The position numbers and the translations under genes were made by a program. Under the pieces are notes generated by a model that saw nothing but the letters and a program-made list of their open reading frames with translations, searched no databases and was not told the origin of the DNA. 64,000 bases of DNA from a virus, in the IMG/VR virus record IMGVR_UViG_3300013006_000024, positions 32,001 through 96,000 of that record. The stretch is one strand, 5' to 3'. Below, piece after piece: positions 9,420-64,000 of this stretch. Every line of letters begins with the position of its first letter. Within the stretch, counting starts at the first letter, position 1.

Positions 9420-9700
9420 CTGAAATATTTAAACACCCAAAAAAGAGATACGTTTATGCAATTACAGGCGGTGCATTTTTAGGCGAACTCTTTGTATACA
9501 TGGAAAAGAAGAATGATGATTTTGTATTTTTGTCTTTACCTGATATGAAAATAAGAGAGGTACCATGCGATAAATTTGATTTTGGGTTAACACAAAAAAT
9601 AGTAGATATAGTTGAAAAGCTGCCAGCAAATGTTTACGACGTCTGCAGAATACAATATAATAAAAATAACACTTTAAATACGGAAGTAGCTATTAAATAA
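9413..9700 (+). CDS. Hypothetical protein
   Basis: 95-aa ORF overlapping the previous stop. Confidence 0.6.
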   Translation: MLTEIFKHPKKRYVYAITGGAFLGELFVYMEKKNDDFVFLSLPDMKIREVPCDKFDFGLTQKIVDIVEKLPANVYDVCRIQYNKNNTLNTEVAIK

Positions 9701-9704
9701 CTAT

Positions 9705-9893
9705 ATGGACCTAATTAACCCCATACCTATTGTTTCACCTATTAGTGGTGAGCCTGTTAGACCTCGTCTACGTACTTACATTCGTGAAGGTAATGAAATT
9801 GTTGAAGCAGAATATATTGATCCGGCTAGTGGTACCTTTATTAGAAAAGGTATAGTTTCTGTTAAACCTATACCTAAACAAAATAAGGCTTAA
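9705..9893 (+). CDS. Small hypothetical late protein
   Basis: 62 aa; TAAATA 5 nt upstream of ATG. Confidence 0.6.
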   Translation: MDLINPIPIVSPISGEPVRPRLRTYIREGNEIVEAEYIDPASGTFIRKGIVSVKPIPKQNKA

Positions 9894-9928
9894 CTTGTTT
9901 TTGATAGTATATAACTTATACTATACGT

Positions 9929-60289: not shown

Positions 60290-60348
60290 CTTATAAGTTT
60301 AACCTTATTTATTTAAAAAATCCATAAATAATTTATAAGGCTTTTAAA

Positions 60349-62967
60349 ATGAATAGGATTACGTATTTATCTGGCGGAACTACAGTTATTTCATTTCAAG
60401 GCTATAATTTTGAAAATACAAGATTTGTTTATCTAAGTACTACTAGTGATAACGCTCAAGCATACAATAATGTAGTTGTTGACTTTTTTCCAGGTTCATC
60501 TCTATACCCTGCTTTTACAGGGTTTAAGTATTTTGACTACACATTAACAAATAATATCTTAACGTTAAATGTTTCTAATTTATCTGGTGGGGGGTATTAT
60601 GATGTTATTATTTTTAGTAATGCAGGGTATGCTAAACTATCAGATAGTAATTTGTTAATTAACGCACAGATAGGACCATATGTTATACCTACACCGACAC
60701 CTACTGCAACTATAACACCTACAATTACGCCAACTATTACAATAACACCTACAATTACGCCAACTATTACAATAACACCTACAATTACGCCAACTATTAC
60801 AATAACACCTACAACTACACCTACTGAAACGGTTACACCTACAGTAACACCAACCGTTACTAGAACGCCTACGCTTACACCGACTATTACACCTACAAAT
60901 ACTATTACACCTACTGTAACAATAACACCGACAATAACACCGACAATAACACCGACAATAACACCCACAATAACACCTACACAGACTATTACACCGACGG
61001 CAACTATAACACCTACAATTACACAAACAGAGACTGTCACACCTACTATAACACCAACTATAACACCTACTATAACGATTACAAGATCATCTACACCGAC
61101 TATTACACCTACAAACACTATTACACCTACAAACACTATTACACCTACTGTAACAAGGACACCCACAATTACACCCACAATTACACCCACAATAACACCT
61201 ACTATAACGATTACAAGATCGCTTACACCTACAACAACACCTACACCTACTGGTACACCAACTACAACAATTACACCTACAGAGACAGTAACGCCTACCA
61301 TTACACCTACTATCACCCCAACTATTACACCGACAAGTACAACAACCCAGACTACAACACCGACTACTACTGTTACGCCTACAACCACTTTAACTGTTAC
61401 GCCTACTAGAACGCCAAAACCTACAATTACACCAACAAGAACACCAACAAGAACCCCTACTAATACAGCTACACCAACAGTTACGCCAACAACAACGCCA
61501 ACTATTACACCTACTATTACTAAGACACCTACAAATACTCCTACTCAATCTATTACACCTACTCAATCTATAACGCCTACTAAAACAGTTACACCAACCA
61601 TGACGCCTACTAAAACAGTTACACCAACCATGACGCCTACTAAAACAGTTACACCAACCATGACGCCTACTAAAACAGTTACACCAACCATAACGCCTAC
61701 AATAACACCAACGGTATTTGTCTTTAATGTATTTGATGAAGCTAAAAATTACGTTACACCAACAGTAACACCTACTGTAACACAGACAGCAACAATTACA
61801 CCTACAACAACCCATACAGCTACACCGACAATTACACCCACAGAGACTGTCACACCTACTATAACACCAACTATTACGCCGACAGAAACAGTAACACCAA
61901 CTATTACGCCAACAGAAACAATTACACCTACTATTACACCTACAGAAACAATTACACCTACTATAACACCGACTCAATCTATTACGCCTACGCAGACCAC
62001 AACACCTACAATCACACCTACTGTTACTGTAACAGTTTATCTATCACCTACTCCTACTATAACTATTACGCCAACCGAGACGGTGACACCTACAGTAACG
62101 CCAACTGAAACTGTAACTCCGACTGTAACACCTACAGCAACGCCAACAGAAACTGTAACTCCGACTGTAACACCAACTATTACACCAACAGAAACTGTTA
62201 CACCGACTGTAACACCAACAATTACAATTACGCCTACTGAAACTGTTACACCGACTGTAACGCCTGAAGCGACATCCACAGTTACACCTACAGCTACACC
62301 GACAACAACAATTACTCCAACTATAACACCGACTATAACTGTTACACCGACTGTCACACCGACAATAACACCAACAAAATTTATATTCAATGTATTTGAT
62401 GAAGCTAAAAATTACGTTACACCAACAGTAACACCTACTGTAACACAGACGGTCACACCAACTAATTCATTAACACCAACAGTTACACCTACAGTTACGC
62501 CGACAGAAACAGTTACACCAACAATAACCATATCACCTTCTAATACAGTTACACCTACTAGAACACCTACACCGACAAGAACACCGACAATTACACCCAC
62601 TAATACCAGTGTACCCACATTTACTTCGCAATATACATACACATGCCCAGTACCGCCTAATTTAGCTTACCAACCATCCGCTAGTGCTCCCACTTACGTA
62701 GGAGTACAGTTCCAAGGATTATGCTCACCAGCACCTGTAACAAAACTAGGTATAACTGCTGATAGATTTTCTTCCGGGTTTGGCGCACTTTACTGTTATT
62801 TTAATGGTGTAGCCTCGTGTGTAATAAAGAAGGACACATATCTATCTAATAGTAATATATTTTATGTAATATTTAACGGTGATGCTACACAGACTAAGTA
62901 TTATGGTAGATTAACACCTAGAACATATTATTACTTTGTAACTGGTGGTAAATATTGGCCAGTTTAA
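60349..62967 (+). CDS. Virion protein with ~640-aa mucin-like Thr/Pro stalk between a small beta-rich N-domain and a Cys-containing C-domain
   Basis: 872-aa ORF; upstream CATAAATA; (T-x)n tract 60688-62619. Confidence 0.75.
60688..62619 (+). repeat. Long Thr/Pro coding tandem repeat with internal 62-bp exact duplication
   Basis: 30-bp units such as acgcctactaaaacagttacaccaaccatg repeated ~4x (61571-61690); 61726-61787 identical to 62389-62450. Confidence 0.92.
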
Positions 62968-63004
62968 CTATAATTTAAGCATGCTTTTTACATAAATATA
63001 TTAT

Positions 63005-64000
63005 ATGGCCGGTAATGCGCGATTTCATAATAAATGGCATAGAAGGAATCATCATTCTTCTCCTTCAATAGGTTACCCTGATTCGGGTACTGATCCTATT
63101 GCTTCGCCTGAAGAGCCTTTTATTGGTGATTTTGTAACTTATAATTCAATTTCTGCACACGAAAATCTTTTTGTTGATGGTAATGCTACTGTTCTAGGAA
63201 ATCTTTCTGTTTTTGGAGATTTTACTTATCTTGATACAGTAGTTTCAGTTACTAGCGCATTAAGCGTTATTAATCACGGTACTGGACCTGCATTAACAGT
63301 TGTACAATACGGTAAACAGCCTATTGCTCAATTTATCGACGGTGATGCATTAAGTGGTGGTAAAGAAGCTCTATTTATTACTGACAATGGGTATGTTGTA
63401 GTTAATGGTAAAACAGCTGCTGAAAAATATGATCCTTATCAAGGAAATCTTTCTGCGGTTCCAATGGATTTTAATGTCTACGGTAACGGCTATGCTAAGA
63501 AAGCTTTTATATATGACAGGCCAGATGGTAATACAGTATATGTTAGCACCACTGGTTCAGATTACAACAGTGGGTTGAACCCCTCACAAAAAGTCAGAAC
63601 AATTAAAAAAGCATGTCAAATTGTTTTTAATGTGTATGGTACCAACAAAGCAACCATTCAGGTGGAAGCTGGTGACTACACAGAAATTAATCCCATTTAT
63701 GTGCCTGCAGGCACATCCATCATTGGTGAAGCTTATTTGCGCCGCACAAACGTTCGCCCATATCACAAACAAATGGATTTGTTTTGGCTCAATGCTGCAT
63801 GTTACATGTGGGGCTTCACATTCAGAGATACATGGGATCCTTGTGCAGCAACTGCATTTCCTAATTTGGACCCAAGAACTGCTGCATACAAAGTAGCTTT
63901 CAACACACCAGGGTGTGAAATTAGTACAACCAAACCAGGAGGCCCTTTTGGATTACCAATAGTCTCAAAACCATTTGTTACCACCAGCCCATACACACAA
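63005..64000 (+). CDS. Tail fibre/tailspike-like protein with start of a pectin-lyase-like beta-helix; runs off the window edge; not in ORF track
   Basis: ATG 63005 with TAAATA 6 nt upstream; MAGNARFHNKWHRRNHH...VDGNATVLGNLSVFG...TVYVSTTGSDYNSG...RTIKKA...TIQVEAGDYTEINPIYVPAGTSIIGE. Confidence 0.75.
   Translation, partial: MAGNARFHNKWHRRNHHSSPSIGYPDSGTDPIASPEEPFIGDFVTYNSISAHENLFVDGNATVLGNLSVFGDFTYLDTVVSVTSALSVINHGTGPALTVVQYGKQPIAQFIDGDALSGGKEALFITDNGYVVVNGKTAAEKYDPYQGNLSAVPMDFNVYGNGYAKKAFIYDRPDGNTVYVSTTGSDYNSGLNPSQKVRTIKKACQIVFNVYGTNKATIQVEAGDYTEINPIYVPAGTSIIGEAYLRRTNVRPYHKQMDLFWLNAACYMWGFTFRDTWDPCAATAFPNLDPRTAAYKVAFNTPGCEISTTKPGGPFGLPIVSKPFVTTSPYTQ

Follow-up and report, generated by a model that had tools for sequence, protein, structure and literature searches.

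Background

Bacteriophage T4 is the textbook model of phage late transcription; its late promoter, TATAAATA, is located at − 13 to − 6 and is read by gp55, with gp33 as the co-activator and gp45 as the clamp (PMC1524935, PMC2988020, PMC7892883), and its late messages carry ordinary leaders with a Shine-Dalgarno (SD) sequence. In the DNA of an uncultured lake phage recorded in IMG/VR (IMGVR_UViG_3300013006_000024), the hexamer TAAATA is found only a few nucleotides (nt) before the start codons of many genes, a layout that raises the question of where the messages of this phage begin and how they are translated. A preliminary description of this DNA, made from the sequence alone, proposed that the late genes are transcribed as leaderless mRNAs. 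In this work we analyzed a window of 64,000 nt, corresponding to bases 32001-96000 of a single viral contig of 105,162 bp with 33.8% G+C (G000). From these analyses we consider it likely that the late messages, and also the early ones, start at the start codon or within 3 nt of it.

Results

The TAAATA box is found 5-8 nt before many start codons

The hexamer was recovered at the spacing previously described before all 19 starts that had been listed, with the variant TAAGTA at 25178 and gaps of 5 to 8 nt between the box and the start codon (Table 1). Further starts of this kind, not included in that list, are 22318 (TAAATT, gap of 5 nt), 46804 (gap of 7 nt) and the internal in-frame start 14902 on the minus strand. 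On both strands of the whole contig, and using no gene model, there are 230 copies of TAAATA; at a gap of 5 nt these are followed by 25 ATG, GTG or TTG codons, 20 of which open a reading frame (ORF) of at least 60 amino acids (aa). The number of such ORFs is 7 for a gap of 6 nt, 4 for each of the gaps of 7 and 8 nt, and from 0 to 3 for each of the gaps 0-4 and 9-24. The credible box-linked starts are all ATG or GTG, and the two TTG matches correspond to spurious ORFs.

The gene calls used here are crude (108 genes, taken as the longest ORFs, some of them with a wrong start). A box precedes 16 of these 108 starts at a gap of 5 nt and 30 of them at gaps of 5-8 nt; among the other ATG and GTG codons, 7 of 5008 have a box at a gap of 5 nt, three of them being alternative real starts. 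It could be argued that such coincidences arise by chance in a genome with 34% G+C in which TAAATA is common (230 copies, slightly fewer than shuffled sequences predict), or that the motif is a stop-codon artefact, as the preliminary description had contemplated. Nonetheless, the enrichment at gene starts is positional and about 100-fold: TAAATA as such is not over-represented (162 copies in the window vs 197 expected), so the signal must lie in its location, and TAAATA-N5-RTG occurs 23 times vs 8.0 ± 2.7 in 200 dinucleotide shuffles, none of which exceeded 15. In addition, the arrangement is strictly conserved in relatives, and the equally AT-rich phages P-SSM2 and T4 do not have it. An explanation by chance or artefact is refuted by these results.

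The box has the characteristics of a T4-type late promoter

The gp55 gene, which the preliminary description had expected elsewhere in the genome, was found in the contig at G000:C1:21215-21823 (L002:3216-3824:+), 10.2 kb before the window. Its product was identified by its match to phrog_234, ‘late sigma transcription factor’ (E 2.2e-25), whereas no match was obtained in Pfam, and it is surrounded by the T4 core genes gp46/47, gp43, UvsX, UvsY, gp41, gp32 and gp61.

In a logo of 39 sites the motif reads aTAAATA[A/t]T, with AT-rich DNA after it and nothing conserved upstream. Conservation does not extend to the first T of the TATAAATA-type 8-mer, and this agrees with other T4-like phages, where this T is weakly conserved or the motif is CTAAATA (PMC1524935). 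A − 35 element is absent, given that TTG is present in the − 35 window in only 4 of the 39 sites; T4 late promoters also lack a − 35 element and carry an AT-rich segment after the box (PMC2988020). The late box precedes the sheath, tube, neck and fibre genes together with several genes for large proteins without a family match; a PhoH-like gene that also carries a late box is one of the exceptions to this late-gene rule. On these grounds the TAAATA box is very probably a gp55-type late promoter.

Since the T4 box occupies − 13 to − 6 (PMC1524935), TAAATA would fall at − 11 to − 6, so that a gap of 5 nt puts + 1 on the first base of the ATG or GTG, as had been reasoned before, and gaps of 6-8 nt correspond to leaders of 0-3 nt. 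The proposal of leaderless late mRNAs is thus supported in part by the box and its geometry, but at gaps of 6-8 nt the leader would not be exactly zero. According to the mechanism that we propose, TAAATA(A) and its variants TAAGTA and TAAATT would act as the − 10-like box of gp55-type late promoters, and RNA polymerase carrying the phage sigma factor would start on the first base of the start codon (gap of 5 nt) or 1-3 nt before it (gaps of 6-8 nt). The resulting late messages would be leaderless and devoid of an SD sequence, and the ribosome would recognise their 5′-terminal AUG or GUG.

Regarding the clamp, a search for the gp45 C-domain (PF09116) gave no match in G000, in G001 or in G002, which is a complete relative; in a direct protein search, gp45 from HTVC008M finds the product of window positions 7135-7866 (27% identity, E 8e-9), which is a weak candidate.

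Conservation of the layout in related phages

PHROG scans identified a large terminase, the tail sheath, two tube-like proteins, a tape measure, a baseplate wedge, a neck protein and fibres, along with the T4-type replication and recombination genes gp43, gp41, gp61, gp32, UvsX, UvsY, UvsW-like and gp46/47. This gene content identifies a contractile-tailed, T4-related phage; it is a deep-branching T4-like myovirus. The 105,162-bp contig has no terminal repeat, its CheckV completeness is 49%, and a complete relative has 229.7 kb; PHROGs found no major capsid, portal or prohead protease among the genes of the contig that were scanned, and the head module is probably on the missing half of the genome. 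With 24 kb of the phage DNA no megablast match was obtained among GenBank phages, and the closest cultured relatives (Kyanoviridae, pelagimyophages and the Sinorhizobium phage phiM12) are only about 30% identical in the DNA polymerase, so that the host is not inferable from relatives. In IMG/VR, relatives of the sheath are encoded by at least 597 contigs; from these, 80 sheath-centred loci were fetched as the comparative set. The G+C-richer end of a 157-kb relative, classed as ‘provirus’, was considered as possible host DNA and this was discarded, as that end encodes fibre genes.

For the sheath gene, ATAAATA-N6-ATGGCA is kept in 52 loci with 50-96% protein identity, and the bases before the box vary. 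In eight more distant sheath loci no box abuts the ATG, and this same codon is preceded by GGAGG, AGGAG or GGAG. As SD-led relatives use the same sheath ATG, the start codon is fixed and the two designs are evolutionary alternatives. In the SD-type relatives a box is located about 45 nt upstream, followed 7-8 nt later by a mini-ORF of 11-12 codons that ends 1-3 nt before the ATG. This mini-ORF contains GGAG(G) (examples are L066:9901-10003, L076:9901-10003 and L077:3164-3266) and resembles a leaderless upstream ORF coupled to the main gene, an arrangement which suggests that even in these relatives ribosomes may enter at a 5′-terminal AUG, via the mini-ORF.

For the tube gene (19958), about 50 distinct upstream sequences retain the gap of 5 nt, and relatives likewise retain the TAAGTA variant with its gap of 5 nt before 25178. 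For the orthologues of 20533, TAAATAATTAG-GTG is kept in about 45 loci and one locus shows box-N5-ATG; thus, the GTG starts proposed in the preliminary description are real in the sense that relatives conserve them. In four other orthologues of this gene (L061, L062, L064 and L071) the box is followed by AGGAG, 8 nt and an ATT that aligns with the GTG.

These comparisons bear on the idea that the boxes are real late promoters and that the true start codons lie farther downstream, behind ordinary leaders. Calling the longest ORF did produce some wrong starts (the start called at 11335 should be 11401, and the terminase, on the plus strand, probably starts at 15220 rather than 15211). However, with few exceptions no in-frame start precedes the abutting codon, the proteins are conserved in relatives from residue 1 (MARTI... 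for the sheath, MADV... for the tube), and in SD-led relatives the SD sequence lies before the very same ATG; we consider this explanation very improbable. The assignment of the terminase start to ATG 15220 is itself probable, given that relatives show ATA, AAT or ATT at the first position and keep the second ATG; the terminase promoter region overlaps the divergent box of 15199 on the minus strand.

Special loci

An internal in-frame TAAATAATTTT-ATG is present at 14902 on the minus strand, inside the 297-aa gene located at 14306-15199. The box codons ATA-AAT are invariant in 19 relatives with 39-72% identity, and neighbouring synonymous sites vary; as ATA-AAT is never swapped for other Ile or Asn codons, selection acts on the DNA motif itself. 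These invariant codons are as expected if 14902 were an internal promoter plus start. The product of this gene is very acidic, of low complexity and without a PHROG or Pfam family, and it is probably scaffold-like; the internal start would give a 198-aa form of it.

On the same strand, an intrinsic terminator precedes the box of 14237. Relatives conserve its hairpin, in which three of the predicted pairs show compensatory changes, and the T8 run that follows the hairpin ends 3 nt before the box; hence, unless there is read-through, the message of 14237 must begin within about 13 nt of the ATG. This is the one clear case of a terminator before a box; at three other boxes the preceding T-runs lack a convincing hairpin. 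The lone minus-strand genes 30927, 32976 and 11366 are preceded by 18-70 nt of intergenic DNA in which the box is the only recurring motif.

The early genes abut host-type promoters

A different arrangement was found for an early class of 18 sites, which consists of TTGnnn, a spacer of 16 nt (14 of the 18 sites; rarely 17-18 nt), a TATAAT-like hexamer, a gap that peaks at 6 nt (range 4-9 nt), and ATG or GTG. The genes in this class include those for UvsX, gp41, gp32, the clamp-like protein, the primase, QueE, a GTP cyclohydrolase and epimerases. Since the sigma-70 hexamer lies at − 12 to − 7, a gap of 6 nt would put + 1 on the start codon. The replication genes are thus built in the same way on host-type promoters, which makes the layout a genome-wide trait and not a peculiarity of the late genes; in our proposal the early genes would use the same device, with sigma-70-type promoters of the host (TTGnnn-16-TATAAT-like-6-RTG). 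That two unrelated motifs, each at its own canonical distance, are split according to gene function makes it hard to sustain that they are a translation signal.

Distribution of promoters, coupled genes and SD sequences

Among the 108 called genes, 33 have a late box at a gap of 4-8 nt and 15 an early promoter; 36 have neither promoter and start between − 20 and + 5 nt from the stop codon of the gene ahead of them on that strand (with junctions such as ATGA or TAATG), and 24 fall in none of these classes, several of them because of a wrong start call. The promoterless genes close to a preceding stop would presumably be translated by termination-reinitiation. In the virion region, around 16 genes have their own box and around 15 are coupled within − 13 to + 3 nt of the preceding stop. 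The earlier statement that most structural genes are expressed from individual promoters is for this reason too strong: individual promoters are present, and about half of the genes in this region are coupled in operons.

SD-like 4-mers at − 18 to − 4 were found at 8 of the 108 starts (7%) and at 2 of the 48 promoter-abutting starts, the background being 4.7%. The whole genome thus runs almost without SD sites, and the reported lack of SD sequences at the listed starts agrees with this background level, with the caveat of a purine-rich patch before the tube gene 19958 (see Discussion).

Given that a genome without SD sequences requires another aid to initiate at internal cistrons, the box could instead be an A/U-rich signal for ribosome loading or reinitiation on long polycistronic late messages, and not a promoter for each gene. 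In five cases the TAA of the box is the upstream stop codon (9700, 16929, 38849, 53516 and 67612, in window-based numbering), and many relatives of 16938 have a direct TAA-ATG junction to the terminase gene instead of the box, as if box and coupling were interchangeable. On the other hand, the motif equals the T4 late-promoter core in a phage that encodes gp55, and in SD-using T4-like phages it acts as a promoter from a position 15-40 nt upstream. The majority of the boxes do not form a stop codon, and boxes are also found before lone genes of the opposite strand and, in one case, before a gene that immediately follows a terminator. Moreover, before the early genes TATAAT with a − 35 element takes the same place at its own canonical distance and, as a weak additional point, no RNA contig bridges a box-linked start among the contigs listed. 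A translation signal of this kind is accordingly improbable as compared with the promoter that we favour.

Ends of lake RNA contigs

Four lake metatranscriptomes, available as assembled contigs, were examined for pieces of the phage with at least 99% identity. In the sheath gene (ATG at 17632), 17639, 17640, 17647 and 17664 are the positions at which RNA contigs begin; for the tube gene (ATG at 19958) one begins at 19967, and for 22318 two begin at 22340 and 22372. On the minus strand, two RNA contigs end at 32966 and 32957 for the start at 32976; for the internal start 14902 the contigs end at 14873 in three runs and at 14886 in the fourth. There are no loose ends at these contig ends, and none of the contigs listed crosses a box-linked start; on the 3′ side, RNA contigs extend 13-21 nt beyond the stop codon at 14306. 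These ends are compatible with starts at the start codons and give a weak hint in that direction. Uncovered stretches and the 6-10-fold higher depth downstream of 14902 (22-30 vs 2-4) were not used, because contig depth cannot rank the parts of a gene and a lack of cover is no proof of anything.

A ribosomal protein bS21 gene

The window also carries a gene for a divergent ribosomal protein bS21 between the gp41-like helicase and gp32 (27.7-28.4 bits with PF01165, for a cut-off of 27). Its ATG overlaps the stop codon of a 98-aa ORF (ATGA), which in turn starts 12 nt after a TAAATA at 4689-4694. The bS21 of phage relatives shows 64-100% identity, an invariant C-terminal KW motif and PF01165 in all 22, and a profile of phage bS21 matches solved bS21 chains (E 1e-5); comparison of this profile with solved ribosome chains gave no signal of lineage.

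In a contrast of ten T4-like phages, the five that carry bS21 all have gap-5 genes and the five without it have at most one gap-5 gene each; the bS21-positive cultured phages are related to one another. Relatives in which gp32 identity is about 67% or less generally have no bS21 within about 10 kb of gp32, including the slot between gp41 and gp32 (L226 is an exception), and such distant relatives keep box-abutting starts. In the sheath-centred loci, a tblastn search for the gp41-S21-gp32 region gave no match, as the flanks of these loci end before that region. A link between bS21 and the layout is consequently not claimed, considering the mutual relationship of the bS21-positive phages and the persistence of the layout in relatives that lack bS21 within that distance of gp32.

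Table 1. Candidate promoters, start codons and other features in the 64,000-nt window
Feature	Position	Strand	Remarks
Late box 411-416 + 8 nt + ATG 402	400..416	-	gene of 238 aa without a PHROG family
Late box 1918-1923 + 7 nt + ATG 1910	1908..1923	-	
Early promoter TTGATT-16-TATCAT-6-ATG 3353 (gp41-like helicase)	3319..3355	+	host-type
bS21 ribosomal protein, 69 aa	5000..5209	+	PF01165 just above cut-off
gp45-like sliding clamp candidate, divergent	7135..7866	+	early-type promoter 8 nt from ATG
Late box 9694-9699 + 5 nt + ATG 9705	9694..9707	+	62-aa ORF; TAA 9698-9700 is the upstream stop
Early promoter TTGTTT-16-TATACT-6-GTG 9929 (primase)	9895..9931	+	host-type
Late box 11373-11378 + 6 nt + ATG 11366	11364..11378	-	divergent pair with 11401
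Late box + 5 nt + GTG 11401	11390..11403	+	divergent pair with 11366(-)
Early promoter TTGCAA-16-TATAAT-6-ATG 11805	11771..11807	+	host-type
Late box 14243-14248 + 5 nt + ATG 14237	14235..14248	-	first gene of neck/head-closure operon
Intrinsic terminator GGGCCTAAG...TTAGGCCC + T8, 22-nt GC-rich hairpin region	14252..14281	-	ends 3 nt before the 14243-14248 box
Internal late box 14908-14913 + 5 nt + in-frame ATG 14902	14900..14913	-	inside gene 14306-15199
Late box 15206-15211 + 6 nt + ATG 15199	15197..15211	-	
Late box + 5 nt + ATG 16938 (tail-tube-like)	16927..16940	+	TAA of the box doubles as the stop codon of the terminase
Late box + 6 nt + ATG 17632 (tail sheath)	17620..17634	+	
Late box + 5 nt + ATG 19958 (tail tube)	19947..19960	+	
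Late box + 5 nt + GTG 20533	20522..20535	+	
Variant TAAATT + 5 nt + ATG 22318	22307..22320	+	GTG in closest relatives
Variant TAAGTA + 5 nt + ATG 25178	25167..25180	+	
Late box 30933-30938 + 5 nt + ATG 30927	30925..30938	-	lone minus-strand gene, 18-nt intergenic region
Late box 32984-32989 + 7 nt + ATG 32976	32974..32989	-	lone minus-strand gene
Late box + 5 nt + GTG 33048	33037..33050	+	
Late box + 5 nt + ATG 38858 (1046-aa virion protein)	38847..38860	+	box TAA is the upstream stop
Host-type promoter TTGATT-17-TAAAAT-6-GTG 43767	43732..43769	+	
Late box + 7 nt + ATG 46804	46791..46806	+	
Late box + 5 nt + GTG 51651	51640..51653	+	
Late box + 5 nt + ATG 53525	53514..53527	+	box TAA is the upstream stop
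Late box + 6 nt + ATG 63005 (1535-aa protein)	62993..63007	+	

Discussion

The motif, its spacing and conservation, the presence of a gp55 gene, the functional split between two promoter classes and the lack of SD sequences are established for this phage. It is from them that we infer the exact transcription start sites and the initiation of ribosomes on the 5′ end of the message. It appears that, in a very large and uncultured branch of the T4-like phages, the late promoter has been moved onto the start codon and the SD sites have been given up.

Several observations weigh against this interpretation. The RNA contigs, with a depth of 2-30, cannot show true 5′ ends, and the four runs come perhaps from one sampling campaign. 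Together with the gaps of 6-8 nt, boxes located 10-18 nt before the ATG (23130 and 60349) indicate that not all the late messages are strictly leaderless. With a known gp45 the clamp candidate shares only 27% identity, and the Pfam C-domain model does not detect it; the purine-rich patch before the box of the tube gene could serve translation from read-through transcripts. Finally, leaderless GUG is a poor initiator in E. coli (PMC4633059), so the conserved GTG starts need host ribosomes that accept them.

Some of these sites deserve a description. The tape-measure gene at 23130 (plus strand) has TAAGTA 10 nt before the ATG (23112-23132), likely a late promoter with a leader of about 5 nt, and the 872-aa gene at 60349 (plus strand) has TAAATA 18 nt before the ATG (60325-60351), likely a late promoter with a leader of about 13 nt. 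The conserved purine-rich patch at 19933-19946 (plus strand) is 13-19 nt before the tube ATG; it reads GAGG in this phage, and relatives have AAGGGG, AGAGGA or AAGGAG. This distance exceeds that of a normal SD sequence, and the patch might serve read-through transcripts or the promoter.

A broader proposal would be that this clade follows a translation programme independent of SD sequences, formed by loading at the 5′-terminal AUG or GUG, termination-reinitiation (including the sheath mini-ORFs), and a bS21 that favours such messages over the SD-led mRNAs of the host. We regard this programme as doubtful, and the part concerning bS21 is the weakest.

If the messages do start at the start codon, abundant lake and ocean bacteria must translate leaderless AUG and GUG messages efficiently, and gene callers that rely on ribosome-binding-site models would misplace starts in these phages. 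The distance from box to start would be a simple sequence marker of the translation style of the host, and the natural toggles between box-N5-GTG and box-SD-ATT in orthologues would provide a clean system to study how start signals co-evolve.

A literature search on leaderless late messages in T4-like phages, cyanophages and pelagiphages returned only GeneMarkS-2 citations or unrelated work, and no paper describing the box-abutting layout in T4-like phages was found. We compared the phage with others by counting the copies of TAAATA after which an ORF of at least 80 codons has its first in-frame start (Table 2). By this measure, the layout prevails in this clade, is shared in part by the SAR11 phages HTVC008M and Mosig, and is missing from classical T4-like phages.

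Table 2. Copies of TAAATA by their distance to the first in-frame start of an ORF of at least 80 codons
Phage	Gap 4-8 nt	Gap 15-39 nt
This phage	26	9
157-kb relative	42	17
HTVC008M	14	10
Mosig	7	19
Melnitz	3	21
P-SSM2	3	51
S-RSM4	1	30
phiM12	0	22
T4 late region	0	15
C48C1 region	0	4

Early promoters that abut the start codon are also found outside the clade. In C48C1 (L086, OQ984149), an SD-using member of the Kyanoviridae, the polymerase and primase genes have TTGACA or TTGACG-17-TATAAT 6-7 nt before the ATG (19940-19991 and 23340-23391), which shows that early genes fused to host-type promoters are not exclusive to these phages.

In the giant phages AR9 and phiKZ, which are large virulent phages with their own late transcription machinery, the leaders are long: those mapped in AR9 have 26-491 nt, and those of phiKZ have mostly 31-40 nt, with no leaderless transcript in phiKZ (PMC5312081, PMC8244752). 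A closer parallel is found in mycobacteria, in which a leaderless 5′-terminal ATG or GTG is the only start signal required, TTG fails and ATT needs an SD sequence (Shell et al. 2015; PMC4633059). Likewise, the box-linked starts of the phage clade are only ATG or GTG, and ATT is found only with an SD sequence; the mycobacterial case is, however, cellular and relies on host promoters, and in the phage clade the start site would be set by a sigma factor of the phage. This analogy points to host ribosomes that may handle leaderless messages well.

The SAR11 myophages HTVC008M and Mosig (Kyanoviridae) share with this phage TAAATA-N5-ATG, at 11 and 6 genes respectively, and both encode bS21; however, their design is mixed, and many of their late genes have SD-led leaders (AAGGAG). 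T4 itself resembles the phage studied here in the box core, the absence of a − 35 element, the AT-rich DNA after the box, the gp55 homologue, the boxes before virion genes, and the in-frame pairs of promoter and start inside a gene, which in T4 are annotated for gene 17. In contrast, the T4 box is located 9-46 nt before the ATG (mode 27-28) and never at a gap of 4-8 nt, in agreement with the earlier remark that T4 does not use this layout, whereas the mode here is 5 nt; and by the same measure an SD sequence is present in 25 of 49 T4 genes, whereas here it is at background level. The system thus differs from T4-type late promoters in where the promoter lies with respect to the coding sequence and in the genome-wide absence of SD sequences.

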